Of a stretch of 64,000 bases of DNA, positions 16,418-62,170 are shown in pieces. Each line of letters begins with the position of its first letter. Positions within the stretch are counted from its first letter, which is position 1. Position numbers and translations under genes: made by a program. This DNA comes from an uncultured delta proteobacterium (GTDB lineage Bacteria; Myxococcota_A; Polyangia; Polyangiales; Polyangiaceae): contig CAVOKF010000004.1 in the NCBI GenBank assembly GCA_963696385.1, positions 704,001 through 768,000 on the forward strand, read 5' to 3'. The notes under the pieces are model-generated. The model was not told where the DNA came from and did no database searches. It saw only the letters and a program-made list of their open reading frames with translations.

Positions 16418-16491
16418 CGGGGAGTCGCACAGTCCGGTAGTGCACGAGCTTTGGGTGCTCGTCGTCGCGGGTTCAAATCCCGCCTCCCCGA
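16418..16491 (+). tRNA. tRNA-Pro (anticodon TGG)
   Basis: Acceptor stem CGGGGAG/CTCCCCG, D loop AGTCCGGTAG, anticodon arm CGAGC-TTTGGGT-GCTCG, T arm GCGGG-TTCAAAT-CCCGC; CCA not encoded. Confidence 0.96.
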
Positions 16492-24774: not shown

Positions 24775-24927
24775 ATGAAGAGAACGCTGATTGCTGCGAC
24801 CCTTTTTCTTGCCCTGGGTGCGCTTGGGGTGGGGCTCGTTTTTGGCTCTGCCGGTCAGGCCCGCGCGGCGAGCCTCGCCGAGAGTCGGCTGAGTACCCCG
24901 TCGGACGGGGATGGCGGAGGTTGGTGA
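24775..24927 (+). CDS. Small secreted peptide (50 aa; signal peptide + 19-aa tail ending DGDGGGW)
   Basis: GGAG RBS, MKR + hydrophobic core + ARA cleavage site; stop overlaps next gene start. Confidence 0.6.
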   Translation: MKRTLIAATLFLALGALGVGLVFGSAGQARAASLAESRLSTPSDGDGGGW

Positions 24928-27022
24928 TCGCCTTGCGCGCGCCGGAGCGGCGCTCTCGCTCGCAGTCGCCGTAGGGAGCTGCACGCCGGGTTCAGGTCCC
25001 CATGTCCCGCCCGCGCCCGGGCCCGCGAAAGGTGCACGCGCGGAGGCGCTTTCGGACCGGCTGGCTGGGTTACGCGCTTGGGAGGGTGCGACCCGAGATC
25101 GCACCGACTTCGCTCGCGTGCGAACGTCCGACATCGCTCTCGGCACGGATCCCTACGTCATTCGGCGCATGGATGGCCCGAAAGGCGACGATCCAGCGCA
25201 GGCCGGGCGCTTCGTCGGCATTTTGCGTGGGCGCGGGGCGCTGGTGGAGCTCGATGAAGCCTTGCACGAGGTTCACCGGCTCGCAGCGCCGGGTTCCCCG
25301 AGCGGTCTGGCGGTCTCGCCGGCCGCGGTGTTTGCCGTCGGCGAGCTCTCCAGCCGCGTCGCGCGTTTCCGCAGCGTGCGCGGGCGCCTCGAGCCCGCGG
25401 GGTTCATCAATCTCCCCGGGGTTCGTGCGATGCGCGATGTCGCGACGGGCCCTGAGGGCGTCGTGTACATCGTTGAGGAGCACGATGGTCGGCTCGTGAC
25501 GTTGCGTCCCGGAAGCGATGACGAGGAGACCCCGGCGGCGCGGGTGGACGCCGTACTGTGCCAGGGTCCCATACACGTGCTGAGGGTGGCGAAGTTCCTT
25601 CTGGTGGATTGTCTCATCGACCATCAAGTGGTCATCCAGTCGGTCGATGCCCGCGGGTTCCCCGACCCTTCGACCGAGATCCGCATCGCCCGAGACGGTC
25701 CGATTTGGGGGATCGATGCTCTGCCGCGGGCGGACGGGTTGATGGTCGCTGTCGGAGCCGTCGAGGATCACCCGCTGGATCGCACTCAGGGGTCATTCGG
25801 CTTCATCGACTCATTCGTCGCGCTGTATGGGGTGGACAACGGCCGAGCGGCCAAGATCGGAGAAGTGAACGCGTCCGCCTACGGGCTTGTGACGCCCAAG
25901 GCATTGAAGGTCCTGCCTCTTCTCCCCTCCGGCGGGCTCGAAATCGTCGTCGCTGGTTATGGCTCCGATCGTCTCGCTCGGTTCGACTGGACGGATGCGA
26001 ATCCGCTTGGGTCGCCGACCGTCCAAATGCGCACCATCCCGCCGGGAGCCGCTATGATCGAAGCCGCCGGAGATGGATCCTGGCTCATCGCCGATCCGTT
26101 GATCGATTCGTGGGTGCGGGTCACATCGTCCGATACTGTCGTAATGCCCGTGGAGGACGACCTGTCGCGTCAGCGCACGGTCGACTCGAGGTTGGGTGAG
26201 GCACTCTTTTTCACCACGCTGATGGCGCCGTGGAACCGGTCGGACGGCCGTCTCAGTCGCTTCACGTGCGAGACATGCCACTTCGAAGGTTACGTCGATG
26301 GTCGCACCCACCGCACCGGTCGTGGCGATATCCTGGCGACGACGAAGCCGCTGGCCGGGCTGCTGAACAATCGACCCCACTTTTCGCGAGCTCTCGATCC
26401 GGACCTGACGACGATGGCGGACAACGAGTTTCGCGTTGCCGGAGCGAAGAGCGACCACGATCCATGGTTCGCTCTGTCGGCCGAGGACTTTCCGTGGATC
26501 CGCCGCCTCGGCGTGACCGGAACGACGCTCACCGCCGAAACTCTTCGACGCTCCCTCGTGAGTTTCTTCATGGATTTCACACCGCGGCCAAACCCTTCCG
26601 TCGAGGGTCGCACGCATTTTAGCGATCTCGAGCGTTCGGGTGCGATCGTTTTCCGGGACGAGTGCGAAGGTTGTCACCAAGCCCGTCTGGTGGCCGACGA
26701 CCCGTCGACCCGCGTTCCGTTCGAAGGATGGCAAGCTCTCGTGATGACGCCTCAAGGAGCGATCGTTTGGGCCCGTGCCGAATACGCGAAGACGGGGGTC
26801 ACGCCTTACGTCAACGAGCGTGGCGCACGGGTCGTTTCGCTGAGGCGCCTGTACAAGAAGCACCCGTATTTCACGAACGGAACCGCGAGGGACGTACGCG
26901 GGGTCCTCGATCGCGTTCGAGTGGCAGACACCCGCTTCTTCCACGAGGGCGGGTCCGAATCCGCGCGAAGCCTCTCGGAAGCGGAAAAAACGGCCTTGGC
27001 GGCATTTCTCGACTTGCTTTGA
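24911..27022 (+). CDS. Lipoprotein with beta-propeller-like region and di-heme cytochrome c (bCcP/MauG superfamily) domain
   Basis: Lipobox VGSC; LGEALFF..CETCH (26267-81); GAIVF..CEGCH (26663-77); SLRRLYKKHPYFTNG; LSEAEKTALAAFL. Confidence 0.8.
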   Translation: MAEVGDRLARAGAALSLAVAVGSCTPGSGPHVPPAPGPAKGARAEALSDRLAGLRAWEGATRDRTDFARVRTSDIALGTDPYVIRRMDGPKGDDPAQAGRFVGILRGRGALVELDEALHEVHRLAAPGSPSGLAVSPAAVFAVGELSSRVARFRSVRGRLEPAGFINLPGVRAMRDVATGPEGVVYIVEEHDGRLVTLRPGSDDEETPAARVDAVLCQGPIHVLRVAKFLLVDCLIDHQVVIQSVDARGFPDPSTEIRIARDGPIWGIDALPRADGLMVAVGAVEDHPLDRTQGSFGFIDSFVALYGVDNGRAAKIGEVNASAYGLVTPKALKVLPLLPSGGLEIVVAGYGSDRLARFDWTDANPLGSPTVQMRTIPPGAAMIEAAGDGSWLIADPLIDSWVRVTSSDTVVMPVEDDLSRQRTVDSRLGEALFFTTLMAPWNRSDGRLSRFTCETCHFEGYVDGRTHRTGRGDILATTKPLAGLLNNRPHFSRALDPDLTTMADNEFRVAGAKSDHDPWFALSAEDFPWIRRLGVTGTTLTAETLRRSLVSFFMDFTPRPNPSVEGRTHFSDLERSGAIVFRDECEGCHQARLVADDPSTRVPFEGWQALVMTPQGAIVWARAEYAKTGVTPYVNERGARVVSLRRLYKKHPYFTNGTARDVRGVLDRVRVADTRFFHEGGSESARSLSEAEKTALAAFLDLL

Positions 27023-27097
27023 CGCACACTCGTCGACATGACCCCTGGACTTGGTCTAAGGTCGCCTCGCTTGTTTTCGGAAGGGGTAATCAGAAAT

Positions 27098-27628
27098 ATG
27101 TTGAAGCAAAAATACGCAGGGGCGCTTGCACTTGTCGCGATCACGGGGGCGATCACGTGGGGGGGAGTCGTCGTCACCGGTTGCTCGTCCAGTGAGTCGA
27201 GCTCTCCCCCCGAGGACTCGGGGTTGGACCAAAGCGCTTCCGACGCGCCGAGCGATCAGGGAACGGGTTCCGAGACGACGGCCGACGCCTCCGATGCCGG
27301 CGTGAGCGACGCCTCCGACGGCGCGGTCGGCGATGCGTCCGATGCCGGCGTGAGCGATGCGTCCGATGGCGGCCACGGCGATGCGTCCGACGGCGAGGTC
27401 GGTGACGCCTCCGATGCCGGCGTGAGCGATGCGTCCGATGGCGGCCACGGCGATGCGTCCGACGGCGAGGTCGGCGACGCGTCCGACGGCGCGGTGGGCG
27501 ATGCGTCCGACAGCGGGGTGGGCGATGCGTCCGACAGCGGGGTGGGCGATGCGTCCGACAGCGGGGTGGGCGATGCGTCCGACAGCGGCAGCGACGCGCC
27601 CTCGGATGGCTCAGTCGAAGCCGACTAA
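27098..27628 (+). CDS. Acidic low-complexity lipoprotein with DASDxxxx octapeptide repeats
   Basis: Lipobox VTGC; about 13 DASD(A/G/S)xxx units. Confidence 0.75.
   Translation: MLKQKYAGALALVAITGAITWGGVVVTGCSSSESSSPPEDSGLDQSASDAPSDQGTGSETTADASDAGVSDASDGAVGDASDAGVSDASDGGHGDASDGEVGDASDAGVSDASDGGHGDASDGEVGDASDGAVGDASDSGVGDASDSGVGDASDSGVGDASDSGSDAPSDGSVEAD
27284..27595 (+). repeat. 24-bp coding tandem repeat (~13 copies)
   Basis: Units such as GATGCGTCCGACAGCGGGGTGGGC repeated with variants. Confidence 0.9.
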
Positions 27629-27634
27629 CGGAAA

Positions 27635-27668
27635 CGGGGCACCGGGCTGACAACAGCCCGGTGTCTCG
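27635..27668. terminator. Stem-loop between convergent genes
   Basis: CACCGGGCTG-ACAA-CAGCCCGGTG (27640-63), extendable with G-U pairs; no strong U tract. Confidence 0.5.
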
Positions 27669-27727
27669 CAATTTCCGCGTTTCGGGTTACCGGATCCGGC
27701 TGGCCGCTGTCCTGTCGCAGCCGGCCA

Positions 27728-28229
27728 TCACTTAATGAAGTATCCTGAAACGCGCCATCGCCCATCGCGTTCCTTGGTCGGCGTGACCGTCTCGATTGCA
27801 CCCGGCTTCTTTTCGAAGTGCGTGTCGAACTTGAGCACCACGTATTGTCCGTCCGGGGCGCCCGGCAGTGTCGTCGAGAATTTCGCCGTCTTGAGCGTTC
27901 GCGAGAATCACCTTGCCGAGCGGATCGCGCACTCCATGGACGGCCCTCTCCCAGCCCGCCTGGTCGAGGGTGCCTCTGAAGAGAGCCGCGGCCTCGCTGA
28001 AGCTCTGCCCGTTGTTGCCGGCGTCCACGAGAGCGAGCCAGGCTTCGGCCGCCGCGCGTGCAGCCTTCTCGTCCCCCGCGGTCGATGCATCGGCTGCGGC
28101 CGCCGGCGCCTCAGTCGTCTGAGCGTCGATTCCCGGCGATTTCCTCTCCGTACAGCCGCAGACCGCGAGCAGCGCCGCAACGGTGGCACGCAAGAGGTCC
28201 AGCCGGGCCCTCGCGCGTCGGTGAGCCAT
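27728..28229 (-). CDS. DUF4019-like lipoprotein (one-base frameshift at ~27907)
   Basis: VCGC lipobox, AAEAWLALVDAG, RDPLGKV in one frame; LPGAPDGQYVVLKFDTHFEKK..AIETVT...DGRWRVSGYFIK in the other. Confidence 0.85.
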
Positions 28230-28381
28230 TGCGCCGAGGCTAACTCCGCTCGCACGCCGGAGCAATAACAGGTTGGTTCGACCTCCGCTCTTGGTTCGCA
28301 CGTGCGCGGCCTTTGCGTCCGTTTGCGCCGTGCAGCAGCGCGTCCGGGGGGATGGATCCGGGGAACATACGAAACGGACCC

Positions 28382-29017
28382 CTACGGATTGCGGCGGACA
28401 GGGAACGACGCAAGAACCAGCTCGACGGCGCGGCTCAAGCGCCCATAGTCGACCGGTCCGGGATTGACCTCGGTACGAGCCGAGCCGTGCCAGACGAGTT
28501 GATGGGTTTCCCCATCGAACGCGTCGATCACGAATGCACCCTCGACGAGGTCTCCCTCCTCTTGGTCGAGCTCTCCGTGGTATTCCGATGTCCCCATGTC
28601 GGCGGGGCCCGGCACGTTGCCCGGGGTGTCGTTTGCGCGCGACGCCTCCGGCAAACCGGAGACGCCACCGCCGAGCGGCATGATCCCCGTGCCGGTCGGC
28701 ACCTCCACCTCGCGACGCCCGGCCTCGACTCTCACGACGAGATCGGCCTGATCGCGGGCGGCGAGTCGGTACCCTCGGCTCTGAAGAATTTCCGCGGCGA
28801 GCTGCCGGACGTGATCGCGCACATCGGCCGATCGAGGCGAGGCCGCATGGCCGGCAGGAGCCCGGCGGCTCACGTCGAAAGCGATCGTCCGGTACCGTTC
28901 GAAGTGGGCATCGGGCGATTGAATCGCGTGAACGTGGATCGCCGGTGCGCAGCCTGAGCCGCCGCTCATCAGCGCGGCGACCAGAACGAGAAGGGAGATC
29001 TTCACGGGGTGGGCCAT
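28382..29017 (-). CDS. DUF4136-like lipoprotein
   Basis: SGC lipobox, FERYRT, LQSRGY, ADLVV, EGAFVIDAFDGETHQLVWHG, AVELVLASFP. Confidence 0.85.
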   Translation of the reverse strand: MAHPVKISLLVLVAALMSGGSGCAPAIHVHAIQSPDAHFERYRTIAFDVSRRAPAGHAASPRSADVRDHVRQLAAEILQSRGYRLAARDQADLVVRVEAGRREVEVPTGTGIMPLGGGVSGLPEASRANDTPGNVPGPADMGTSEYHGELDQEEGDLVEGAFVIDAFDGETHQLVWHGSARTEVNPGPVDYGRLSRAVELVLASFPVRRNP

Positions 29018-29170
29018 CTTACGGCGTCTCACCGGATCCTGCTCGACGCGAGTACGGGCAACTCTGGCGCGTTTTTCCGCGCGCGGATGCGGCCGGCGTC
29101 CCGGCGGCCGGAACGAGACCTCGGGTCGGGCTCCCGGCTGGGAGGTCGGCCGGATCGGGCCAGCCCCGGT

Positions 29171-30085
29171 TCATTGGAGTCGCTCGAGAAGATCTTCACG
29201 TTCCAGCGCCAAGGCTCCGAGCGTCGTTCGGACCATGTCGAAGTGCTCCTCCAAGAGGTCGAGCCAATCTGCGACGCGAAACGTGAGCGCGCGTCCGCTC
29301 GTGAGCGCGCGCGCCTCCCACCCGAGGATCGGGTCTCCGAAAGCGGCGGCGCCGCACACGAAGTCGCCCGCGCGACCTCGCCACACGACCTGCGGAGCCG
29401 AGTGCACGGCTTCGACCTCTCCATCGAGAAGAAGCACGACTCGTCCGCCGGGATTTCCACGCTCGATCAAGATGTCGTCGCGGTCGAATGCCATGACCTC
29501 GGAGGCGACCGCGAGGTCGCTCAAGGTCTGCACCCCGGCACCGCGGAGCAGCGGCGCTTCCGTCAGCACGGCGAGCCGCTCGATCACGTCGAGCTGAAGG
29601 CCGGGCGGACAGGGCGGCGGCGCCCCGCGACGTGAATCGCCGCCCGCCGCCCAAAGTCTTTGCTCGAGCTCCGCCACGGTTCTCACCGATCCGAACACGG
29701 CTGATCGGGTCAGCGCGAAGCTCTCAGAAAGAAGCTCAATCCACGCTTCGGCCTGAACCTTCATCGCCTCGATGTCCGTGAGCGCGATCGCCGTCCGAAT
29801 GCGCGGCCGCTCGAGCAGAGCGTCGGACATGCCGAACACGGATCGGCTCTCGTAGGTCCATGGCGCGCTCCCCTCGCGCACGAGCCGCACACGGCCCTTA
29901 CGGAGGAAGTAGTAAAATTCGGGCGGGTCGCCCGCAGAAAACAGAGTCTCGCCGGCTTGGGCGATCTGCTCCTCGAGCAGGGAAGTCAAGCGATCGGTCA
30001 CCCAGGACTCCGTTACGCCCGCATGCGCGCCGAAGGCGGCCAGGAACAGCTCACGATGGATCCGCTCGAGCTCCACATCAGGCAT
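29171..30085 (-). CDS. Tandem cyclic-nucleotide-binding domain protein
   Basis: AGETLFSAGDPPEFYYFLRKGRV..SVFG...PRIRTAIALTD; second degenerate domain LIERGNPGGRVVLLLDGEV; overlaps upstream stop. Confidence 0.85.
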   Translation of the reverse strand: MPDVELERIHRELFLAAFGAHAGVTESWVTDRLTSLLEEQIAQAGETLFSAGDPPEFYYFLRKGRVRLVREGSAPWTYESRSVFGMSDALLERPRIRTAIALTDIEAMKVQAEAWIELLSESFALTRSAVFGSVRTVAELEQRLWAAGGDSRRGAPPPCPPGLQLDVIERLAVLTEAPLLRGAGVQTLSDLAVASEVMAFDRDDILIERGNPGGRVVLLLDGEVEAVHSAPQVVWRGRAGDFVCGAAAFGDPILGWEARALTSGRALTFRVADWLDLLEEHFDMVRTTLGALALEREDLLERLQ

Positions 30086-32754
30086 GGCCGGCCTCGGGCA
30101 GGTGCGACGGGTTCTCGGTGGCCGATAGGGACCGCTCTTTCGTGCAGGCCGCCGCAAGGCCAGCCAGGATCGGGTCGCGGTCACGCATGAGCGTGGCGAG
30201 GGCCTCATCGCGCCCGCGGGGAATCGCCGGCCCACCCAAAGAAGCCGCTCGCGCGGCGCGCTCCGGCAAAGACAGGTCCTCCGTAATCAGACGGAGCAGG
30301 GCGCGGAGCTGCTCTTGGTCGCGGTGTCTCAGTAGCGCATCGAGCAGCTCGCCGGCGTTGGCACGCGTGTACGGGTCGTCCGAGAGGCACGCGAGCCGCA
30401 CGCGCCGGAAGTCTTCGCGCGGGTGGGCGATGGCGAGGAGTCGAAAGACGCGCTCGATCGACTGGCGGAGCTTGTCGTCGAGGAGGCCATCGAGCAGCCG
30501 AGCGGCCGCCCCGGGATGGCCCTGCACGAGCGGGGCTGCGCCGAGAGCCACTCGACTTGCGAGCAAGCGGAAGTGCCGGGTGAGCGCGGCCCGAGCGATC
30601 CGTTCGACCCGGGCGCGATCCAACGGGATGCGCCTCTCCGTGACGAGAATCTCCAGTGCACGGATCGACTTGTAGCGGACGAGGCCGTCCTCCTCCGTTT
30701 CGATGTTGTCGAGAAGGTGCTCGGCCGCAGCCCTCGTGCCGAATCGCCCGAGCGTCTTTGGAAGGTGAATGCGGTCGCGGTGCGGTCGCGTCGTGTCGCG
30801 CAGCGCCCACCAGACGGCCTGCAGAGCGTCTTCCCCGAACGCGACGAGCGCGGCCCGGACCGCCTCGCGCCCCTCTCGCGCCGACAGGAGTTCGACCAGA
30901 CGAGGGATGAGCCGCGGGTCGCGCTGACGCGCGGCCGCCCGTGCGAGCAGCTCGGTGTGCTCGGGCGATGTGTCCGTGGAATCGCCGAGCGCCAAAAGGA
31001 GGCGCGACAGCGCCGGCGTCGGGGCGACGTCGGCGATGGCGGCCAGCATGCCGAGTCGCCCGCGGTCGCCCGAGTCGCCGACTTCGCGCAGTTGAGTGCG
31101 GAATCCGTTCGTCTTCCATCGCGTCCTCCATGGGGTCGCGCAGGGCCAGAACGACGGTCGCGTATCCGCGCACGCGTGAGCCGACGTCGTCTGCCAAACG
31201 TGCGACGTCGAGTTCGTTGTGCATCGCGAGCGCGCGGGCCGCCGCCATTCGGACGCCTTCACGACGATCTCCGAGCAATCGGTGCGCCAGGACCATCCAA
31301 TCGGTGCGCGTGGATGCCCCGAAGTGATCGAGGGCCTCGGTGAGCACCCGCTCGTCGGAGTGCAGCAGGATCAACGCCGGCACGAAGCCTTCGTGGCCGC
31401 GACGCGACAGGGCTTTCATCGCGCCGACCACCTCGAGGGGGTCCTCGCTCGCGAGGTGCTGGACGAGGATTTGCGCGCTCTCGAGGTCCAATGGCCCCGG
31501 GCTGTCTTGCCCCTGCAGAGAGCCGACCGTGACAGCCTTCCGGAGCAGAGCCAGATAAGGCTTGTGCATCGTCACGGCCACCGCGAGCCACGTACCGGCT
31601 AGTGCGGCGACGCCCCACGGAAGCAGCCACGGCGCCGTCGCCCAGGTCCCGCTCAGCGCCAGGAGCCCGGCCCCCGTGAGGGTCTGCGACGCACGCACCA
31701 GTGCGCCGTCGATCAACGGCTTGAAGTGTTGGCGTATCCGCACCGGCAGCGGCAGGTAGATGAGCTCTCCCGAGATGCGGTGCATCGAGTATCGTAGGGC
31801 GCCGTCGATCGCCTTCATCACGAGCACGGCGCTCAACGCGCCCCCGAACAAAACCACTTCTGCGGCGCCGAGCAGCAAGAGCACCGGCGTCACGATTACG
31901 GCTGCCGTGACGCCGAGACGCCGCACGACGGCGCTGCCCAGGAGTACCTGCACGATCAGCGAGAGAACGTTGAGCGCGAGATAGTAGCGGGCAATGAATG
32001 GCCCGATGCTCGCGCTTGGCATCGACCGAGCCACGGTCGACTTGAAGCAGTAGTCGAGTACGAGGAGCGTTGCCGTGGAAAGCACGACGCTCAGCGCGAT
32101 GCGGGACAATAGCGGCTGATCGCGAAGCGCACGCCACGTATCGGTCAGGGTCGGCGCCGCCTCGGGTCCGAAGCGCCGCTCGTCGCCGCCGACTCGCAGC
32201 AGAGCCGTGCAAGCCATCAAAAAAAATGCCGCCGAGACGAGCAGGAGCGCCTTGACCGACAGCACGAGCAGCAGCGCTGCGGCCGTTCCGGATCCGACGA
32301 TACCGCCCAGAACACCCGCGGCGGCAATCAAGCCGAACAGCCGTCGGCTCTGTGCGACCGTGAGGGCCTTGCCGACCAGCGTCCAGAATTGCGGGACGAC
32401 GATCGATCCAACCAGGCCGCTCACCACGTATACGGCCATGGCGGACGGCGTGCTCGCCGGGACGGCAAAGAGGGCGATGGCCAGGACCGCCGCGATGGCC
32501 AACGTTCCTCCCAAAGACAGGCGCGCCCCGAAGCGCTCGGCCGCGAGTGCGGCCAGCGATGCGGCCGGCCATGCGCACACCGCGATGGCGATGTAGACGA
32601 TCCCGAGCGCCCGCGGCCCCGGGCCCGCAAGCAGGAGGGCGTCGCGGGCGGCTTCGAGCACGGTGTGCCCGGTGATGATGAGCAAGAGGACGGACGCGAA
32701 CCCCAGCAGGGCCACACGCCCTTCGCCGTCGCGCACGTCCAGGAGGCGAGGCAT
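30078..32754 (-). CDS. NTT (TLC ATP/ADP translocase)-like MFS transporter fused to HEAT repeats (one-base frameshift at ~31103)
   Basis: LEAARDALLL, QFWTL..QSRRLFGLIAAAGVLGGIVG, LRYSMHRISGELIYLPLP..KPLIDG; C-terminal HEAT-like repeats split over two frames; span 3n+1. Confidence 0.8.
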
Positions 32755-32780
32755 GGCTCGACGCAATCGAGAAGGCTCGT

Positions 32781-33563
32781 TCAGGGCTTGGCAAATAGCA
32801 ACGCGAACCGATCGCTTGTCCCCCGCCGCTCCGCGGCCGCCTCCGGGGAGTCGTTCCAGTCGCGCGAATCCGAGGGGTTGCGCAGAAAGCTTCCTTCGCG
32901 TTCCAACACGAAACCGGCTTGTTGCACTTCCGATCGCACGACCGCCTCGTCGATGCGATGCAGCGTGTGCACGTCGGCGATCCCGGTCCCGGGCCGGGCG
33001 CTATGATCGATGACGGCGTATTTGCCGCCCTTCTTGAGCGCAGCGAACACCGCGCGATTCATCGCCCCGCGATCGACGCCCAGCCAAACCGTGTCGTGAT
33101 ACACGAGGTTGATGACGACCCTATCGAGATCGCTTGCCTCGGGCGGAAACGGCTCGTCAAGTTCTCGGTCCACCCGCACGATATTCTTCGCGGCCGGCGT
33201 GGACAGCCGTTTCGTCCAAGCCCCTTCGGATCCCTGCAGGATGATCCGAGGATTCTCGGCGTAGACCACACCGGTCGGCGCGACCGCTCGCGCGAGGATC
33301 TCTGCGGTATACCCCGCGCCAGCCGCCAGCTCTCCGACGCGCATCCCTGGTACGATACCGAGGAACGTCAACATTTCTGCCGGGTGTCGACCCGGGTCGA
33401 GCAGCCGGTCCGAGGGCGAACGATCGGGCGCCGCGACGAGGGCGCGAGCCTCGGAGGATGCGATCCGGGGTGTGGGCTCGGGCACGGGTGCCGATGGAGC
33501 GGGGCAGGCCGAGGCGGTTGCGACGGTCGCCGCGGCGCAGAGGGCGACGTAAAAAAGGCGCAC
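32781..33563 (-). CDS. Class I SAM-dependent methyltransferase with signal peptide
   Basis: DPGRHPAEMLTFLGIVPGMRVGELAAGAGYT, LVYHD, ALKKGG.YAVIDH, LRNPSD, SDRFALLF. Confidence 0.88.
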   Translation of the reverse strand: MRLFYVALCAAATVATASACPAPSAPVPEPTPRIASSEARALVAAPDRSPSDRLLDPGRHPAEMLTFLGIVPGMRVGELAAGAGYTAEILARAVAPTGVVYAENPRIILQGSEGAWTKRLSTPAAKNIVRVDRELDEPFPPEASDLDRVVINLVYHDTVWLGVDRGAMNRAVFAALKKGGKYAVIDHSARPGTGIADVHTLHRIDEAVVRSEVQQAGFVLEREGSFLRNPSDSRDWNDSPEAAAERRGTSDRFALLFAKP

Positions 33564-33756
33564 CTCGTTGAGATGCTTCGGCGCCGCGCTTCGTGACGGT
33601 CGCCGCGCGAGACTGCCGCCGGCGTCCGATTCCGCCGCCCCTTGCGCCGGGGGCTAACCGGTCACCGCGACGCCCGCGCTCTCGACTCCTCGCACGGCGC
33701 TCCATCGGACGTGCCGAGCGACGATCCGACCGAAGTCCATGACCGTGTCATCGTTT

Positions 33757-35487
33757 CTAGCGCTCGATCCCCACCAGACGGTATCCGCGAGTCGGTCCGA
33801 GATCGTACAAATGCACCCGCAGCGGTGCCTCGGAGACACCGTCCTGCAGCGCAACATGGACATAGCGGCTCGGCGCGTCGTCTGGTTCCCCGCCGTCTCT
33901 TGCGACGTGACCGAGGTCCACGCACAAGCGCGCGCCCTCGCCCTTTGCAACGGGCAGGATGACTCCGCCGTCCATGCGTACGACGTAGCGGAAACCATCG
34001 GATTTTCGCACACGGCGCGACGCGGCCAGGTCGACGGCGCAGAGTCGGTCGCCCCTTTCGATCTGCACGGAGGCGATGGGCGATAGCCGTGTGAGATACC
34101 GCTCGAGGATGCGTTCGAGCCGTCCCTCGAGCACGCGAGCGACGTACGCGGTATTCCGCGGATCGGTGAATCGCCCTGCCTCGGCGAGCGCAAGGACCAT
34201 CTCCGGAGTGAAGCGCGCGAGGATGCGTGCCATCCAGGCGGCGTCGCGCTCGGTCATCCGTGCGAACGCCGGATTCGGATATTCGTTCTTCCACCGGTCG
34301 GGAACGAAGTGATCGGCGTCGAAGTAGCCGAAGACTTCGTACCCGGCGACTCGGTTGCGGTCCCACGGGCGCAACGGGATTCCCAGGGTCAAAAAGTCCG
34401 ATGCGATGTCGGCCCAATCGACGATATAGGAGTAGCCCATGCGTCGGGTGATGGCTTCTTGGGGCCAGTTCGCCCCGAGGCAGTCGCCCCAGTCGAGGTA
34501 CGAGTGGACCACCCGGCCGGGCGAGGAGTCGGGGTCGCTCGGGCGATTCGCGAGCCAGATGTCCATGCCGTTTTTCTCGTTGCTGTCGACGTGTCCGAGC
34601 CATGCCGCCAACAAGCGATCGGCGCGTAGTTCGCGACGGTCCTCGTGCGGCACGACGTCGTTCGGATCGTCGGCGCGCATCCCTTCGTAGCGAAAGGGGC
34701 CCAACAGCCGCCCCGGCAGCCACGCCGACGCAAGCATGCGGACGCTGTCGCCACGACGGGGTGCAGCGCGCAGGATTCGGTCGAGCGCTTCGCGATCGAA
34801 ATCACGCTCGTCGCCCAATGTCGAGAATTTGTAGCGTAGCCCTCGGGTGAGCTTTAAGGTCGACGGCTTGAAGTAGACGACTTGCTCGCAAGTCGTGTTG
34901 TAACCGACGGCGTGATACGCGGCCGAGGCGATGACGGTGGCCGCGCTCGACAGCTCCGGCTGATCGGGGTCATCGAGCTTGAATAGGTACCTGCCTTTGC
35001 CTGGAATGTTCACGCGAAAGCCGGGCGAATTGCCGCTCGTCTTGCCCTTGTCGATGACCCAGCTGCCGTCGGTGGCACTGTCGGCATCGATCAGCAACGA
35101 CGAATCGCAAGCTCCGAGCACGAGCTCGTCGCGGCTCATGGGCCTCACGCCCAGGCGGTTGGTGAACCAGGAAGAGTCGGGCACCTCGTCGAGGCTGTTG
35201 ACGTCCACGGACTCGTCGCTCACAGCGATGCCGAGAGTCTGCGACAGCGGGCGAAAAAGAACGTTGTCGGCCTCGTCCCAGAATTGGGGGGACACGTACG
35301 CCTGTGGCGCGCAGGATACGTGCCGCGGGTTCGTTGCCGTCGGTTCCAGGTGACAAGGCGCCATGACCGAGCCAAGGTCACCGTCCTGCCAGAGGGGCTC
35401 TCGCAGCGGAAAGCGACGCTCCGCGTGAGCGCACGATGCGATCGCCAAGCACTCGATCAAGGCGAGGGAGCGAGCCTGAGAACGCAT
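33757..35487 (-). CDS. Lipoprotein with atypical protein-kinase-like fold
   Basis: Lipobox IASC; KGKTSGNSPGF, YLFKLD, PELSS, HVDSNEKN (Dx4N), YLDWG. Confidence 0.65.
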   Translation of the reverse strand: MRSQARSLALIECLAIASCAHAERRFPLREPLWQDGDLGSVMAPCHLEPTATNPRHVSCAPQAYVSPQFWDEADNVLFRPLSQTLGIAVSDESVDVNSLDEVPDSSWFTNRLGVRPMSRDELVLGACDSSLLIDADSATDGSWVIDKGKTSGNSPGFRVNIPGKGRYLFKLDDPDQPELSSAATVIASAAYHAVGYNTTCEQVVYFKPSTLKLTRGLRYKFSTLGDERDFDREALDRILRAAPRRGDSVRMLASAWLPGRLLGPFRYEGMRADDPNDVVPHEDRRELRADRLLAAWLGHVDSNEKNGMDIWLANRPSDPDSSPGRVVHSYLDWGDCLGANWPQEAITRRMGYSYIVDWADIASDFLTLGIPLRPWDRNRVAGYEVFGYFDADHFVPDRWKNEYPNPAFARMTERDAAWMARILARFTPEMVLALAEAGRFTDPRNTAYVARVLEGRLERILERYLTRLSPIASVQIERGDRLCAVDLAASRRVRKSDGFRYVVRMDGGVILPVAKGEGARLCVDLGHVARDGGEPDDAPSRYVHVALQDGVSEAPLRVHLYDLGPTRGYRLVGIER

Positions 35488-35569
35488 ATTCTACGGAAAG
35501 CGTGGCCCGGCCGACGAGTCGCCCGCCCGCTGACGTTTGGCGCGAACGGGCCCGTCACGACCCGGGCGA

Positions 35570-35842
35570 ATGAACATCCAACTCCCGGCGATGGCGGCGA
35601 ACGTTTCGTGCAACTCGTGCAAGTGGTGCGCCGACCACCTCGGCGACTACGCCGAGGGCCTTCTCGAGCACGACTTGCAAACCGCGTTGCAAGCCCATGT
35701 CGCTTCTTGCTCGCACTGTACCCGTCTGGTCCATGACTATCTGGCGATCCCAAGAGTCGTTCGGCGCGGCACCGATTGCGAGATGCCGCAGGAAGTCCAA
35801 AGCCGCCTGCGTAGACGGCTCGCGATGAGCTCGAAATCTTGA
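35570..35842 (+). CDS. Soluble zinc-binding anti-sigma factor (zf-HC2/ZAS)
   Basis: C...LGDY..G.L...LQAHVASCSHC (HxxxCxxC); alternative start 35591. Confidence 0.85.
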   Translation: MNIQLPAMAANVSCNSCKWCADHLGDYAEGLLEHDLQTALQAHVASCSHCTRLVHDYLAIPRVVRRGTDCEMPQEVQSRLRRRLAMSSKS

Positions 35843-36004
35843 CGGCGCGATCGTGCGCGAATTTTGCGCATTTCCGCATGCTCTGCGGGTCTTTCCACCC
35901 CGCGTACATGAACTTCAACCCCGGATCGCCAAGACCCGCGCCCCCGAGCTCACAGGGTCCGCTGGCAGCGGGGTGGCCCTGCGATTGCACGGACTGCCGA
36001 TACC

Positions 36005-36604
36005 ATGCTCGTCAGCACCACGGAAGCGTTGACCACGGACGAGGCGCTCGCGGAACAGGCGCGACGAGGCATCCAGAGCGCGTTCGTCGTGTTGGTGACG
36101 CGTTACCAGAAGCGCATCTACCGTCTCGCCATGCGCATGTCGCGAAACGCGAGCGACGCGGAGGAAATCACACAAGAAACCTTCCTGCGTGCGCATCGCG
36201 GGATCAGCACCTTTCACGGCGCATCGCGCTTTAGGACGTGGCTCTACCGAATCGCCATGAACGAGGCACTCATGCGTTGGCGGTCGGCTAAGCGTCGTCC
36301 AACCGAGTCGCTCGACGTCGCCTTGCCCCGGTTCGCCGACGTTGCAGCGGCGGCCTCGGCTCCTTCGGAGCGCGCGGACGATCTGGTCGGAAGCAAGGCA
36401 CTGATGCAGCATGTGCGAGAGGCTCTCGACCGGCTCGACGAAGAGCACCGATCGGCGCTGGTCTTGCGGGACCTGGAGGAATGGACAGCGGAAGAGGCGG
36501 CAGAGGTGCTCGGTGTTTCGCCGGATGTCGTTCGACAGCGCGCGCATCGAACGCGTTTGAAACTGCGCGAGATGCTGGCGGGCTTCCTGACCGACGGCAC
36601 GTGA
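36005..36604 (+). CDS. ECF sigma-70 factor
   Basis: DAEEITQETFLRA, FRTWLYRIAMN, ALVLRDLE..TAEEAAEVLG..VRQRAHRTRLKLR. Confidence 0.93.
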   Translation: MLVSTTEALTTDEALAEQARRGIQSAFVVLVTRYQKRIYRLAMRMSRNASDAEEITQETFLRAHRGISTFHGASRFRTWLYRIAMNEALMRWRSAKRRPTESLDVALPRFADVAAAASAPSERADDLVGSKALMQHVREALDRLDEEHRSALVLRDLEEWTAEEAAEVLGVSPDVVRQRAHRTRLKLREMLAGFLTDGT

Positions 36605-37494
36605 GCTTGCGGTGCCGAACGATCGGTCTCGCGATCCTCCTGGCGCTGCTCGGTTCGTCGACCGCTCGCGCCACCGACGGGGTGTCGCTTCCGGCGCAAT
36701 GGGATCCGCGATGGACGCACGCCGGTCCCGACGACTATGCGCTGACCGGCGGCGGTCTCGCAACGCTGGCTTTCGAGGCGACGTTCCTGCAGGGTGAACA
36801 ACCTGCACTGCACTGGACCGGCCCCATCCTTTTCGACCGGGCCGTCCGGGACGTGCTGCGCGGCTCGACGGCCCAAACCCGCGACGCGGCGGCGGTGGCG
36901 AGCTGGTCGATTCTGGCGCTGGACATCGCCTACCCGCTTTTCGACGTGCCGTACGCGTGGCGACGCTACGGATCGGCGCTGGCCTGGGATCTCTTCTGGC
37001 AAGACGCGACGGCGATCTCGCTCGTCAGTGCCACCGACTTGGCTCTTCGCGACGTCATCGGTCGAGCGCGTCCCATGGTGAGCGACTGCTTGGCTGCCGG
37101 CGGCAGCGCGAGCCAGTGCCTCGGCGACAACACGGAGGCCACGCGCTCGTTTCCCGGGGGACATTTCGCCATAGCCACGACGGCCGCGGTTCTCGTGTGC
37201 ACCCAGCATCTGGCCATCCACCTGTACGGCTCGCCTTGGGATGCCCTTACGTGCGCAACGGCTCTGACGGTGGACGCGGCGGTCGGTACGTTGCGTCTGG
37301 TCACCGACAACCACTGGGCCTCCGACATCCTCGCGGGCGGTGCGCTCGGATTCGCGTTCGGCTGGGGTGTTCCGGTCGTCATGCATCTGCACGCACACGC
37401 CGCTCGATCCGGCCCCGGCCCCCTCGCGATCGCGGTTCCGATGCCTTTGTCGGTCCATCACGGGGCGGGGCTCGGCATCACCGGCTGGTTCTGA
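36601..37494 (+). CDS. PAP2 family phosphatase
   Basis: IGRARP, SFPGGH, LRLVTDNHWASDILAG; GTGA overlap with sigma gene. Confidence 0.88.
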   Translation: MSLRCRTIGLAILLALLGSSTARATDGVSLPAQWDPRWTHAGPDDYALTGGGLATLAFEATFLQGEQPALHWTGPILFDRAVRDVLRGSTAQTRDAAAVASWSILALDIAYPLFDVPYAWRRYGSALAWDLFWQDATAISLVSATDLALRDVIGRARPMVSDCLAAGGSASQCLGDNTEATRSFPGGHFAIATTAAVLVCTQHLAIHLYGSPWDALTCATALTVDAAVGTLRLVTDNHWASDILAGGALGFAFGWGVPVVMHLHAHAARSGPGPLAIAVPMPLSVHHGAGLGITGWF

Positions 37495-38249: not shown

Positions 38250-39695
38250 GTGGCGTCCGGCCCTCGCGCATCTGCAGATACGACGGCGCCCTCGTCCTCC
38301 CTGGGTGCCGGAGCCTCGGCGCGCATCCAGCAGCTTCATTGGGTCCACGGCCCCGATTGCGAGAAGGGTCCGCGCGATCGGCGCGATGAGGATTGTCTTC
38401 CCGAGCGGGCCTCCCGTGTGACGATCGACACGGACGAACTGGTTCTCGGCCGGGAACCCGAGGGCGCGAGGACGCTGGTGGTTTCTGACAAACGCGTATC
38501 TCGCATTCACGCCGCATTCGCTCGCGACGGCGCCACGGGTGACATGTGCGTTGCCGACCGCGGTAGCCGCCACGGCACCATCGTGGACGGAAATCGAATC
38601 GAGGGTGCCACCCGGCTGGTCCACGGGAGTGTCATCCGCCTGGGCGAATCCATCTTCGTTTTCACCGATTCACTGCTGCGGATGGAGGAGGCGAAAGCCC
38701 TGGCGCCCGAGACGCCTGCCTTGCGGGGAACGAGCCTTTCCATGCAGCGGGTGCGCGGGGAGATCGCGCTCGTCGCGCCCCGTTCGCTGCCTGTGCTCAT
38801 TCTCGGCGAAACAGGGGTCGGCAAGGAGCTCGTCGCGCAGGAGATCCATCGCCAGAGCCGACGGAGCGGGCCGCTCTTGGCCGTGAACTGCGCCGCCATC
38901 GCTGCAACACTCGCGGAGACGGAGCTGTTCGGGCACGCCGCGGGCGCATTCACGGGGGCGACGCAAAGAAGCGACGGAGTGTTCGTGGCGGCAGACCAAG
39001 GAACTCTCTTTTTGGACGAGATCGCAGAGCTTCCGCTCGCCCTTCAACCCAAACTGTTGCGCACCCTTGCAACCGGTGAGGTCCGCCCTGTCGGCCGAAC
39101 CGACTCGCGCAGGGTCGACGTGCGTCTCGTCGCGGCCACCCACGGCGATCTGCAAGGGGCCGTCGACCGGGGCGGCTTTCGGGGGGACCTCTTGGCTCGG
39201 CTCGCTGGGTGGACTCTCCGGGTGCCACCGCTTCGCGAGCGCCGGGAGGACATTGTCGGACTCGCACGACTCTTTCTCAAGCGGGTCGCCGCCGATCTTC
39301 GCTTGTCGGCCGGGTGCGTCGAGGCGCTCGTGCTGGGCGAGTGGCGATACAACGTTCGCGAGCTCGAGCAGGTGTTGGCGGCCGCGGCCATCCGCGCCGA
39401 TCGTGGCGTCATCCGTCCGGAGCATTTGCCCGAGGCGATGGCGCGTCCGGTGCTGGAGCGTACGGCGGTTCGATCCGATGCCGCGCGGGCCCCGCTGCAA
39501 GCGCTGGTTTCGCCGGACGCGATCCCGGACGCCGATGGACTCGGGCGCGTCGTGCAATGGTTTGACGGCAACATCGCTCGGGTCGCCAGTTACTTCGGCA
39601 AGGATCGAAAGCAGATTTACCGTTGGGCCGACCGACTCGGCGTCGATCTCCAATCCGCGCGCACAGCCGTCGGCACGGACGACGAGGCAGGCTGA
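38250..39695 (+). CDS. FHA-domain sigma-54-dependent transcriptional activator (Fis HTH)
   Basis: [69 protein letters not shown]; start uncertain. Confidence 0.92.
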
Positions 39696-40661: not shown

Positions 40662-41411
40662 TCAGTCGAAAGAGGGCGAGCCCTGAAATACATAAGACCC
40701 GACGTGCCGGAGTCGGCTTCGAGTGTCGAGCCAGATCTTGCCGCCGATGCGCCGCCAGCGGTGACAGAAAGTGAAATCCTCGCTCAGGAACGTGCCGGTT
40801 TCTGGCTCGATCATGCAATCGAACAGAGTGTACAGGTTCGAGCTTTGGCGCGCCGGAGCCGGGTAGGTGTGCATGGCCCCGTAGTGCGTCTCAGGGTAGG
40901 CAGCGACCAGCCGCTCGACGACTGTCCTCCGAATCAGCATGAATCCCGTTCCGGCAAATTGCGCCGTGACGAAGCCATCGCGCTCCTCACGGTCGCTCGC
41001 GGACAGGGGTACTCCCACGTAGTGCAGCCCGGCCTCCCGCAGCTGGTCCACGGTGAGGCTCTCGGTGGCCGATCGCCGCGCGGCTTGTGACCAGTCCAGG
41101 TTCTTGACGGGGTACATTCCCGCAACGACATCCTCGTCGAAAGCGAGAAGACGCCCCACCTCCTGCGGTTCGAACCCCGTATCCGCATCGATGAACAGCA
41201 GGTGAGTGGCGTCGGGGCTGTCGAGGAATCCGGCGAGGATGCTGTTTCGGCTGCGCGTAACGAGTGAGTCGTGGGCCGCCGTCCATAGGCCAACCCGGAT
41301 GTTGTGCGTGCTGGCGTACGCCATCAGCTTCAACATCGAGTGAAGGTAAACGTGCGTGACGAGACCGGCGTAGCACGGTGTTCCGACGATCACGTTCGGG
41401 GGCGACGGCAT
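40662..41411 (-). CDS. GT-A fold glycosyltransferase-like protein
   Basis: VGTPCY, SLVTRSRN, THLLFIDAD (DxD), GTGFMLIRR, LSEDFTFC.RW, LRHVG. Confidence 0.78.
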   Translation of the reverse strand: MPSPPNVIVGTPCYAGLVTHVYLHSMLKLMAYASTHNIRVGLWTAAHDSLVTRSRNSILAGFLDSPDATHLLFIDADTGFEPQEVGRLLAFDEDVVAGMYPVKNLDWSQAARRSATESLTVDQLREAGLHYVGVPLSASDREERDGFVTAQFAGTGFMLIRRTVVERLVAAYPETHYGAMHTYPAPARQSSNLYTLFDCMIEPETGTFLSEDFTFCHRWRRIGGKIWLDTRSRLRHVGSYVFQGSPSFD

Positions 41412-41492
41412 GGCGTTCAGGGTACCACCCGCCCCGCGCGCCTCGAGCCGCCGCGTGCAAGCCACGTTACAAGTGTTAGCGTGGCTGGCGCG

Positions 41493-43037: not shown

Positions 43038-43156
43038 GCGCCCTGGGCTCGGGTCTCGCGGCCCGCCGATCTGCCTGGGAGATCGACCGGAAGAAACGAG
43101 CGGCGGCAGAGGCTCCACAGGAACTCGCGCACCCCCGCAGTGCCCCGCTCGGGCCT

Positions 43157-58814: not shown

Positions 58815-58923
58815 CACGACCTCCTTGTGAAATGCCGCGCCGCCGGCTCGTTCGCCTCCGGCGACGCGGTTGCCATGGGCTTGCGGGACGACGTTGGACG
58901 ATCGGTGAGCACGGGCGTGCGCC

Positions 58924-62130: not shown

Positions 62131-62170
62131 GGGCCGGCAAGAGCCTTCGCCCAGGGGGGGCCCGCCGCGC

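Follow-up and report, generated by a model that had tools for sequence, protein, structure and literature searches.

NTT-HEAT proteins, in which an NTT membrane domain is followed by C-terminal HEAT repeats, occur in free-living bacteria including the Deltaproteobacteria, and none has been characterised according to the passages of Major, Embley and Williams 2017 (PMC5381601) that treat this family. The same passages propose an uptake of ATP that is adjusted to the energy needs of the cell. The stretch of DNA studied here, 64,000 nt of contig CAVOKF010000004.1 (GCA_963696385.1) from a soil myxobacterial genome (hereafter the window), carries a gene of the same architecture with a cNBD gene immediately behind it; in the published family this domain is encoded a few bases downstream or is fused. 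The locus differs in its other neighbours, since an exported kinase, a PAP2 protein and an Omp85 barrel are not mentioned in those passages. The NTT-HEAT/cNMP pairing that had been recognised in an earlier, sequence-only reading of the window is real, and had already been published (PMC5381601, in the same passages).

Kinases that act outside the cytosol are the other point of comparison. Eukaryotic secretory-pathway kinases depend on ATP carried into the lumen of the ER and Golgi. Fam20C, the Golgi casein kinase, shares an atypical kinase fold outside the cytosol with the kinase-like lipoprotein of the window (here KIN), with Z scores of 10.4–11.8 between KIN and Fam20 that include an N-terminal segment. 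The logic would also be shared, namely a kinase that works where ATP is not synthesised, combined with a nucleotide carrier. KIN differs in that it has no PF06702 match and an Atlas feature score to a bacterial Fam20C cluster of only 0.80, in being a lipoprotein that is partnered by Omp85, and in the family of its carrier. Among bacterial atypical kinases, the closest structures are CtkA of H. pylori (Z 13.7) and CotH of the Bacillus spore coat (Z 12.0), in each case over ~235 residues, but their identity to KIN is only 9–12%, and KIN has no Pfam match. The former enters host cells by secretion, and the latter acts in a place that has ATP; we know of no nucleotide carrier that is tied to either.

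Phosphoryl chemistry on a lipid of the periplasmic face is carried out by LpxT, a PAP2-family enzyme that modifies lipid A (PMC2229476). However, LpxT takes its phosphate from undecaprenyl pyrophosphate rather than ATP, and it is not known to act with a kinase-fold partner or a carrier. Heinz and Lithgow 2014 (PMC4104836) described PlpD, in which a patatin is fused to Omp85, as well as Omp85 proteins that lack POTRA domains (‘noNterm’). Most KIN copies have a gene for a ~420-aa POTRA-less barrel of the Omp85 type immediately upstream, and one distant KIN-Omp85 fusion recalls the passenger-plus-barrel layout of PlpD. The KIN copy of the window differs from these in having no adjacent barrel. 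We report that a conserved envelope module is present in the region in an intact form that lacks the barrel; the module consists of the POTRA-less Omp85 barrel, the kinase, a PAP2 phosphatase and the NTT-HEAT carrier with its cNMP-domain protein. No paper that describes a kinase/carrier/PAP2 module was found in the literature. The module is widely conserved and undescribed as such, while its NTT-HEAT/cNMP part was already known.

Gene content and integrity of the locus

Open reading frame and profile searches recovered all six co-directional minus-strand genes of the sequence-only reading, with the domains as named there; they are listed in Table 1 with the neighbouring genes. The stretch was found in soil, peat and wetland metagenomes by a search of public sequencing runs, and among the runs searched, no RNA run containing it was found.

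Table 1. Features of the locus, with positions in the window.
Feature	Position	Strand	Remarks
ppk1	22477-24504	-	3.2 kb from the six-gene cluster
DUF4019 lipoprotein	27728..28229	-	PF13211, E 2.5e-10; 166 aa frame-corrected
DUF4136 lipoprotein	28382..29032	-	PF13590, E 3.4e-14
304-aa protein with two cNMP-binding-type domains	29171..30085	-	PF00027
NTT-like 12-helix MFS carrier with C-terminal HEAT repeats	30078..32754	-	TLC PF03219, HEAT_2; 891 aa frame-corrected
One-letter assembly insertion in the carrier gene	31102..31102	.	GAATC in place of GATC on the + strand
Lipobox class I SAM-methyltransferase-like protein	32781..33563	-	PCMT profile
KIN, 576-aa lipoprotein without Pfam family	33757..35487	-	modelled kinase-like fold ~130-470, beta-sandwich 470-576
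zf-HC2 (anti-sigma-type) protein	35537..35842	+	PF13490, E 2.3e-7
ECF-type sigma factor	36005..36604	+	Sigma70_r2, E 7.8e-20; Sigma70_r4_2, E 5.3e-13
PAP2-family membrane phosphatase	36481..37494 (matched part ~36685-37488)	+	PF01569

The window shows two apparent frameshifts, in the carrier gene at 31102 and in the DUF4019 gene at 27906. Taken with the closest relative, in which the carrier and the cNMP gene are deleted, these might be read as signs of a decaying locus in which the carrier and DUF4019 genes are pseudogenes. This is extremely improbable. The extra letters are absent from the contigs of four public runs wherever these cover the sites, the probable source sample included; at 31102, the letter was missing in all three runs that cover the position. 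An alignment of the DUF4019 gene with that of the closest relative likewise showed one extra letter in the window. Since the public contigs omit the letter and single open reading frames then run through both genes, both frameshifts are one-letter assembly errors and the genes are intact.

The kinase-like lipoprotein and the neighbouring carrier

KIN matched no Pfam or NCBIfam family in profile searches at E values up to 0.01, and no PDB entry by sequence. The profiles of Fam20C (PF06702), PI3_PI4_kinase (PF00454) and CotH (PF08757) were among those that it did not match. Because neither these profiles nor any PDB sequence matched, KIN is placed in a separate family within the kinase fold, outside the Fam20C, CotH and PI3_PI4_kinase families. 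The fold itself is seen in an AF2 model (pLDDT 82, pTM 0.86), for which kinases dominate the Foldseek list. The highest VIA Z scores of the model were 13.7 with CtkA, 12.3 with PI4KIIalpha, 12.1 with actin-fragmin kinase, 12.0 with CotH and 11.8 with Fam20C, and residues ~130-470 align as a bilobal fold with kinases that also include HipT and MavQ (Z 10-13.7).

The residues expected of a kinase are kept in the family. In an alignment of 46 close sequences, the columns of which were assigned to kinase motifs by reading, K170, H299, D301 and N306 are the same in every sequence and at least 90% have D332; the catalytic-type Lys, the HxDxxxxN loop and the metal-binding-type Asp are thereby retained, and six further Cys are conserved as well. 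Among 20 distant relatives, the K of IKFD, the HxDxKxxN motif and the DFG motif, all canonical, are invariant. The leader of KIN ends in the lipobox LAIASC. A pattern search found a strict lipobox in 63 of 74 relatives, most of the others having a Cys at that position, and this Cys is nearly invariant in the alignment. The ‘kinase-fold lipoprotein’ that had been guessed from the sequence is borne out by the model, the matches to atypical kinases and the lipobox Cys, and KIN is accordingly a predicted exported lipoprotein that has the fold of an atypical protein kinase and keeps residues of the catalytic type.

The sequence of the carrier makes it a marginal, putative member of the NTT/TLC family. 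It scored 23.9 bits against the Pfam TLC profile PF03219 (cut-off 21) over a partial stretch only, and 22.5 bits against the NCBIfam AAA superfamily model, far under the cut-off of 387. HEAT_2 matched the C-terminal part (E 2.3e-7). By phmmer, the best and sole significant PDB match was the ADP,ATP carrier of C. pneumoniae (9j3n, E 1.3e-6). The model has 12 long helices ahead of the HEAT part, which would place both ends of the protein on one side of the membrane. In Foldseek, ranks 1-3 were taken by AtNTT1 and C. pneumoniae NTT1 (CpNTT1) with E values of 1e-8 to 2.5e-8; the TM scores on these targets were 0.67-0.74, at 16-18% identity to the solved NTTs. Other MFS folds, among them the lipid carriers SPNS2 and MFSD2A, start at about 4e-6 and are only ~100-fold worse.

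The start ATG of the cNMP gene overlaps the stop of the HEAT-encoding gene by 8 nt (ATGCCTGA), and in relatives this gene comes after NTT-HEAT at 18 of 20 loci. The tandem cNMP-domain protein is predicted to be translationally coupled to the carrier. PF00027 matched it in two stretches (E 8e-21). In a 26-sequence alignment, the Gly and Ala of the phosphate-binding cassette are invariant and, as the motif was read, the usual Glu is missing in both domains. Since this Glu, together with an Arg, contacts the ligand in cNMP domains, it is uncertain whether either domain binds a cyclic nucleotide.

Recurrence of the linkage and further partners

The linkage of kinase, NTT-like and PAP2 genes recurs across many related and distant lineages. 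An NTT-like carrier lies within 10 kb of a kinase homologue in 48 of 79 loci from related genomes, which are kin rather than independent and in several cases present in duplicate, and in 36 of 79 loci from distant metagenomes. Where at least 5 kb is available on both flanks, the fractions rise to 31/45 and 15/18; the remaining 14 of the 45 well-flanked related loci have no NTT-like gene at all. The co-occurrence of kinase homologues with NTT-HEAT genes, on which the sequence-only reading was to be checked, is therefore found. Seen from the carrier, a kinase homologue lies within 10 kb of a strong NTT-HEAT place in 22 of 26 cases in relatives. By chance, an NTT-like gene would be expected in ~0.6% of 20-kb stretches, as calculated from the two such genes in the 6.9 Mb of the host genome, the second of which stands alone on another contig. 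Two NTT-like lineages, HEAT-fused and stand-alone, associate with KIN, and the HEAT-linked copies are scattered over the KIN tree such that 19 changes are needed. The closest relative has a 3.28-kb deletion that removes the carrier and the cNMP gene and leaves KIN in place, so KIN can persist without an NTT-HEAT carrier; in the host genome, three of the four KIN copies have no carrier nearby.

The tightest partner of KIN by locus counts is the Omp85 barrel and not the carrier. An Omp85-like gene lies directly upstream on the same strand in 64/79 related and 63/79 distant loci. The product has ~420 aa and no POTRA domains, and PF01103 matches 12 of 28 members. No barrel gene stands beside the KIN copy of the window, and the only barrel copy of the genome is on another contig. 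A PAP2 gene (in the window, PF01569 with E 9.7e-12 and 45.2 bits, cut-off 27.2) is found within 1.3 kb of all four KIN copies of the host genome and in 35/79 related kinase loci; one KIN-PAP2 fusion and one KIN-Omp85 fusion occur among the distant relatives. These fusions and the barrel gene upstream add to the lipobox as support for an export of KIN. The zf-HC2 gene is divergent from KIN across a 50-nt spacer, and the ECF sigma and PAP2 genes beyond it are divergent as well. The ECF sigma gene shares 60% identity with the ECF gene that accompanies the module in another locus (L013), and an ECF gene is present in 11/79 kinase loci. The POTRA-less barrel and the PAP2 phosphatase, both recurrent, had been missed in the sequence-only reading.

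Possible roles of the module

The module suggests a passage of nucleotides across the inner membrane that would power phosphorylation in the envelope. Of the readings considered, we favour a supply of ATP to a kinase of the envelope, tentatively and at somewhat less than an even chance. The carrier would bring a nucleotide out of the cytoplasm into the periplasm, in the simplest case ATP exchanged for ADP, and KIN would spend this nucleotide on the phosphorylation of a target in the envelope. Lipid phosphates are the substrates of PAP2 enzymes. Because the steady partner of KIN is a phosphatase of this type, the target is probably lipid-linked, and the PAP2 protein could take the phosphate off again. 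The activity of the carrier may be set from the cytoplasmic side, by the HEAT tail that lies there and by the cNMP-domain protein.

The ATP-supply reading competes with others that accept the module. The NTT-like carriers may move something other than a nucleotide (the substrate of the kinase, a lipid head-group precursor or a product), with KIN using another phosphoryl donor. The marginal TLC match, the 16-18% identity to solved NTTs and the presence of SPNS2 and MFSD2A among the fold matches fit such a cargo, and PAP2 enzymes such as LpxT are described as using periplasmic lipid pyrophosphate donors (PMC2229476). It is nevertheless doubtful, as ATP/ADP translocators fill the first three places among the fold matches and supply the one significant sequence match in the PDB, two distinct NTT-like lineages both accompany KIN, and a protein-kinase fold with intact Lys, Asp and Asn motifs normally uses a nucleotide. 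Alternatively, the carriers could import external nucleotides, scavenged by a predatory or saprophytic soil bacterium, with the barrel, kinase and phosphatase handling such nucleotides or phosphate esters on the outer side of the inner membrane. Every characterised NTT imports nucleotides according to the passages cited above (PMC5381601), the stretch is present in metagenomes of soil, peat and wetland, and an outer-membrane barrel with a phosphatase would suit uptake. Import is unlikely all the same: the kinase has no evident part in uptake and its need for an external donor would persist, lipid phosphates are what PAP2 enzymes act on, and the KIN-PAP2 and KIN-barrel fusions point to membrane chemistry.

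KIN might also be a pseudokinase, or a kinase fold with another chemistry, that works alongside the Omp85-like barrel as its lipoprotein partner and is linked to the carrier by shared regulation only. Kinase folds with other chemistries exist, no Pfam kinase family matches KIN, and the barrel is its tightest partner; yet the near-invariance of the Lys, HxDxxxxN and Asp in the 46 close and 20 distant sequences would be unexpected of a pseudokinase and renders this reading quite improbable. The full six-gene system of the sequence-only reading, in which the kinase would act on the DUF4136 and DUF4019 lipoproteins and ppk1 would be linked, is very unlikely. The genes are co-directional with short spacers and all four extra proteins have export signals, but DUF4136 occurs in 2/79, DUF4019 in 1/79 and the methyltransferase in 6/79 kinase loci. 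Nothing marks the two DUF proteins, whose lipoprotein-type leaders were read from the sequence, as substrates. ppk1 does lie about 3 kb away, as had been stated, but its adjacency is confined to this locus and the syntenic one of the closest relative. DUF4136, DUF4019 and ppk1 are local, unrelated neighbours outside the conserved module, the membership of which differs from the six genes; of the earlier interpretation, the kinase/NTT-HEAT co-occurrence stands, and the lipoprotein substrates, ppk1 and the methyltransferase are not supported.

The putative exported methyltransferase accompanies the module in one subclade, as an occasional accessory. It exceeded the Pfam cut-off for PCMT narrowly (21.3 bits against 20.3, over 49 residues only), and its PDB matches to TrmI and PIMT were weak (E about 0.01). 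A glycine-rich SAM motif, ELAAGAGY, was read by eye, and its relatives carry the database name ‘predicted methyltransferase’. A lipobox-type leader is present in all seven distinct orthologues.

Gene order and integrity of the cluster

Gene calls together with Pfam and NCBIfam profiles recovered all six minus-strand genes that had been described from the sequence alone, in an assembly of 6.9 Mb (66% G+C, eight contigs). They encode a kinase-fold lipoprotein (KIN), a methyltransferase-like protein, an NTT-like MFS domain fused to HEAT repeats (the carrier), its cNMP-domain partner and the DUF4136 and DUF4019 lipoproteins. The ATG of the cNMP gene is overlapped by the TGA of the HEAT gene (ATGCCTGA), 27 nt lie between the methyltransferase stop and the carrier start, and the remaining spacers measure 140-195 nt. 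The carrier has a cytoplasmic-type tail, and its cNMP-domain partner is translationally coupled to the carrier gene. An Rfam search of the whole window gave tRNA-Pro at 16418 as its sole match, leaving the cluster without a riboswitch, and a promoter scan of 27500-36700 found no promoter-like site. A terminator scan of the same stretch returned 10 terminator-like sites, all intragenic (shuffle mean 5.3), so that the two scans are uninformative. None of the public RNA runs searched for the stretch contained it.

Genes and open reading frames in the window (window coordinates)
Feature	Position	Strand	Remarks
KIN	33757-35487	-	576 aa; no Pfam or NCBIfam family
Methyltransferase-like protein	32781-33563	-	PCMT 21.3 bits, cut-off 20.3
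Carrier	30078-32754	-	MFS/TLC-like domain, then HEAT repeats
cNMP protein	29171-30085	-	two cNMP-binding-type domains; PF00027 E 8e-21
DUF4136	28382-29032	-	
DUF4019	27728-28229	-	
ppk1	22477-24504	-	
Lipoprotein with haem-binding-type motifs	24911-27022	+	703 aa; no Pfam match
Lipoprotein with tandem repeat	27038-27628	+	no Pfam family matched
Sigma-54-dependent activator	38250-39695	+	N-terminal FHA domain
Long ORF	40662-43118	-	overlaps the next
Long ORF	41304-43037	+	
Duplicated gene	about 58900-62150	-	~1100 aa

As assembled, the carrier is shifted in frame near 31100 and DUF4019 near 27900, and the two could be taken for pseudogenes in a decaying locus. The carrier breaks between ERI and RTQL relative to an intact orthologue (72% identical), and alignment with the closest relative shows one surplus letter in DUF4019. 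A frame check of 63 kb against that relative gave a handful of frame differences; since these run in both directions, the comparison could not separate error from decay. Contigs from public sequencing runs could, and four runs (X1, X4, X6 and X8) were compared over 27700-31400. The letter at 31102 is absent from X1, a possible source of the assembly (depth 10.7/10.7), from X4 (4.7/4.7) and from X8 (3.5/3.5), X6 giving no cover; that at 27906 is absent from X1 (10.7/10.7), X8 (4.3/4.3) and one X6 contig (2.03/7.13), X4 giving no cover. With the letter removed, the carrier reads as 891 aa and DUF4019 as 166 aa, each with one terminal stop. Because the public contigs lack the letters and the genes then read through, the locus is intact in nature; decay is ruled out, and both frameshifts are assembly errors, which were the sole reason that this copy seemed broken. 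A pseudogene verdict on such loci should await inspection of the reads.

Both errors convert GATC to GAATC on the plus strand, a pattern that may reflect a motif-linked, perhaps methylation-linked, consensus error in the assembly. Genome-wide k-mer counts show no depletion of GATC; GAATC is only about 23% commoner than in the relatives' loci, like other A/T-containing words. The window and the closest relative also differ by 2 nt in length at 41434, inside the two overlapping long ORFs.

The kinase-fold lipoprotein and the carrier

The KIN family holds at least 2967 proteins at E up to 1e-5 and 2438 clusters (50% identity) at E up to 0.001, and all of the matches are unnamed or 'hypothetical'. 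In an alignment of 46 sequences the putative kinase-motif residues K170, H299, D301 and N306 are invariant, D332 and the lipobox Cys are nearly so, and six additional Cys are conserved; the IKFD, HxDxKxxN and DFG motifs are kept in 20 distant relatives. A strict lipobox pattern was found in 63 of 74 relatives, and two distant relatives carry fusions to envelope domains (Omp85 in one, PAP2 in the other). Searching the PDB by sequence returned monobody chance matches only (E at least 0.09). The AF2 model (pLDDT 82.4, pTM 0.86) contains a separate beta-sandwich at residues 470-576, and its best VIA matches are atypical kinases without exception, namely CtkA (Z 13.7, rmsd 4.3, 238 aligned), PI4KIIalpha (Z 12.3), actin-fragmin kinase (12.1), CotH (12.0), Fam20C (11.8), HipT (10.5) and MavQ (10.3). 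From its leader, its motifs and the predicted structure, KIN is an exported lipoprotein of kinase fold. As no named family takes it in, it is kinase-like by fold and motifs, yet no member of Fam20C, CotH or PI3/4K.

The TLC match of the carrier is barely over the Pfam cut-off, and its sole significant PDB match by sequence is the C. pneumoniae ADP,ATP carrier 9j3n (E 1.3e-6). In the model of residues 1-560 (pLDDT 83), 12 long helices precede pairs of HEAT-type helices. The top three Foldseek matches of this model are ATP-/ADP-bound AtNTT1 and CpNTT1 (E 1e-8 to 2.5e-8, 16-18% identity), and the remaining MFS transporters in the list follow from 4e-6. The KIN loci also include another type of carrier, about 480 aa long, that likewise matches TLC.

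Linkage of the genes in close and distant relatives

KIN is present in multiple copies across 41 relatives' genomes, with four in this genome. The first 20 loci inspected hold KIN, carrier, HEAT and cNMP in 18 cases; one of the others is ended by a contig end, and one is the closest relative, which has a deletion. A larger set was scored with purpose-built HMMs, and its counts are to be read knowing that the 79 loci overlap with the first 20 and are kin to one another.

Genes found beside KIN at 79 genome-contig loci of relatives
Gene	All loci	Loci with at least 5 kb on both sides
X (POTRA-less Omp85-like barrel), directly upstream, same strand	64/79	40/45
Any NTT-like gene	48/79	31/45
HEAT	33/79	24/45
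cNMP	29/79	21/45
PAP2	35/79	24/45

A further 79 metagenome loci of distant KIN relatives have X adjoining in 63 and an NTT-like gene in 36, and among those flanked by 5 kb or more to each side the counts are 18 of 18 for X and 15 of 18 for the NTT-like gene; in part of these loci the carrier is an NTT-HEAT-cNMP fusion. Viewed from the carrier side (matches with E up to 1e-100), a KIN match lies within 10 kb on the same contig at 22 of 26 carrier places outside this genome, the exceptions being G008:C3:496139, G002:C387, G016:C18 and, in an unpublished genome, G010:C721. The co-occurrence of kinase homologues with NTT-HEAT or NTT-like genes, the absence of which would have refuted the sequence-only reading, is thereby borne out. 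This genome has only two NTT-like genes in its 6.9 Mb, so that one would be a chance neighbour in well under 1% of 20-kb stretches. On the KIN tree (75 rows) HEAT-linked copies occur in both main branches, and HEAT linkage changes 19 times against a shuffled mean of 24.9, a value equally low in 7 of 500 shuffles. The commonest full order is stand-alone NTT-like gene, X, KIN, PAP2, NTT-HEAT and cNMP. Of 28 X proteins, 12 match PF01103 (E down to 4.4e-11), and the top PDB hit for X is BamA (E 0.021).

Other proposed members fell away. By tblastn, HEAT was counted in 27 of the 79 genome-contig loci, the methyltransferase in 6, DUF4136 in 2 and DUF4019 in 1, and the last three are not regular members of kinase loci. 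The link to ppk1 was not sustained either, as that gene adjoins the KIN cluster only here and in the syntenic closest relative.

The window departs from the common order. Its KIN is without an adjoining X; the sole X of the genome is on contig 7, upstream of a different KIN copy, and the window KIN has its nearest orthologues in loci L037 and L038, where they stand second in a tandem pair of KIN genes that follows X. Divergently upstream of the window KIN lie genes for a zf-HC2 protein, an ECF sigma factor and PAP2; each of the four KIN copies in this genome has a PAP2 gene no further than about 1.3 kb away. The methyltransferase has a lipobox-type leader in all seven distinct orthologues examined, and the very large family to which it belongs goes by the name 'predicted methyltransferase'. 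The window adds an intact variant of the module that lacks the barrel and includes a putative exported methyltransferase and an ECF sigma pair. The closest relative, with about 90% DNA identity, has lost the stretch corresponding to 29260-32540 in a clean 3.28-kb deletion. The carrier is gone from residue 64 on and the cNMP gene as far as residue 275; KIN, the methyltransferase, DUF4136 and DUF4019 survive.

The three further KIN paralogues of this genome (G000) lie at G000:C4:38278-42646 and G000:C7:713180-716922. Two of them diverge from either side of a PAP2 gene, and the third belongs to an X-KIN unit that likewise adjoins PAP2; no NTT-like gene was found near any of the three. The sigma-54-dependent activator of the window lies about 0.8 kb past its PAP2 gene.

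Proposed function, alternatives and precedents

The KIN lipoprotein, the NTT-type carrier, the cNMP partner and the PAP2 phosphatase are linked in close and in distant lineages. In the mechanism proposed here, the carrier would pass nucleotide to the periplasm, KIN would spend it on an envelope target and the HEAT/cNMP part would regulate the carrier. The steady presence of PAP2, and its single fusion to a KIN relative, favour a target that is linked to lipid. Judged from sequence and models, the supply of nucleotide to KIN by the carrier is tentative, its likelihood falling somewhat short of even. Against it stand the marginal NTT membership by sequence, the KIN copies that occur without carriers, the loss of the window's carrier in the closest relative and the uncertain ligand of the cNMP domains. 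With that marginal membership the cargo might be something else; on the other side, the structures nearest to its model are those of nucleotide-bound carriers. Import by the carrier rather than export is an unlikely alternative. It is also unlikely that KIN is non-catalytic, an alternative to be weighed against its invariant motif residues and in favour of which its place outside the named kinase families may be cited. The sequence-only reading, in which ATP was fed to KIN, cyclic nucleotide gated the carrier through HEAT/cNMP and the DUF lipoproteins were possible substrates with ppk1 nearby, is confirmed as a gene observation and partly supported as an interpretation: carrier, HEAT and cNMP recur with KIN, the DUF lipoproteins and ppk1 do not. 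Its full six-gene system, acting as one with these lipoproteins as substrates and a tie to ppk1, is very improbable.

A broader version of the nucleotide-supply mechanism would hold for many Gram-negative bacteria, as nucleotide-dependent phosphorylation outside the cytoplasm; as a joint claim it is doubtful, and less probable than the supply step taken by itself. An NTT-type exchanger would send ATP into the periplasm and return ADP, switched by its cytoplasmic HEAT tail and the cNMP-domain partner. The atypical-kinase lipoprotein, usually docked to its own Omp85-type barrel, and the PAP2 phosphatase would write and erase phosphate marks on envelope lipids or proteins. In the window's subclade the carrier might additionally serve the exported, putative SAM-dependent methyltransferase.

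The periplasm is generally taken as ATP-free, and the usual account of envelope processes is that the inner membrane couples energy to them. Atypical kinases that are exported or secreted are known (CtkA, CotH, Fam20), and the closest analogy to the module is the eukaryotic secretory pathway, in which lumenal kinases rely on imported ATP. On the broader version, bacteria would have in this module an equivalent of the ER/Golgi ATP carrier and the Fam20-type kinases. If the mechanism holds, the module would represent a bacterial system of a new kind and would give the NTT-HEAT family its first function; the genetic tie of KIN to relatives of ATP/ADP carriers makes the idea of ATP in the periplasm directly testable.

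The NTT-HEAT architecture with a cNBD gene directly downstream has been described and left uncharacterised (Major et al. 2017, PMC5381601). The family is widespread, with members among free-living bacteria, cyanobacteria, chlamydiae and oomycetes, and it has stayed uncharacterised since; the supplements of that paper could include myxobacterial NTT-HEAT genes. Within the literature searched, no paper linked NTT-type carriers with exported kinases, PAP2 or Omp85 barrels, and the module was not found in the literature on periplasmic ATP or kinases, on NTT-HEAT after 2017, or on atypical kinases with lipoproteins and Omp85. Within this scope, the NTT-HEAT/cNBD pair is published and uncharacterised, and the whole module is undescribed in print.

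Beyond the cluster, the 703-aa lipoprotein carries a pair of CxxCH haem-binding-type motifs close to the C-terminus, and its counterpart in the closest relative is 90% identical. The C-terminal two thirds of the neighbouring lipoprotein consist of a 24-nt tandem repeat (12.8 copies, array 27283-27589) that encodes Asp/Ser/Gly-rich octads (DASDxGVG). The gene of about 1100 aa has a second copy at G000:C4:794425-798043, about 32 kb further along the contig, with 86% DNA identity, and both copies are present in the closest relative.
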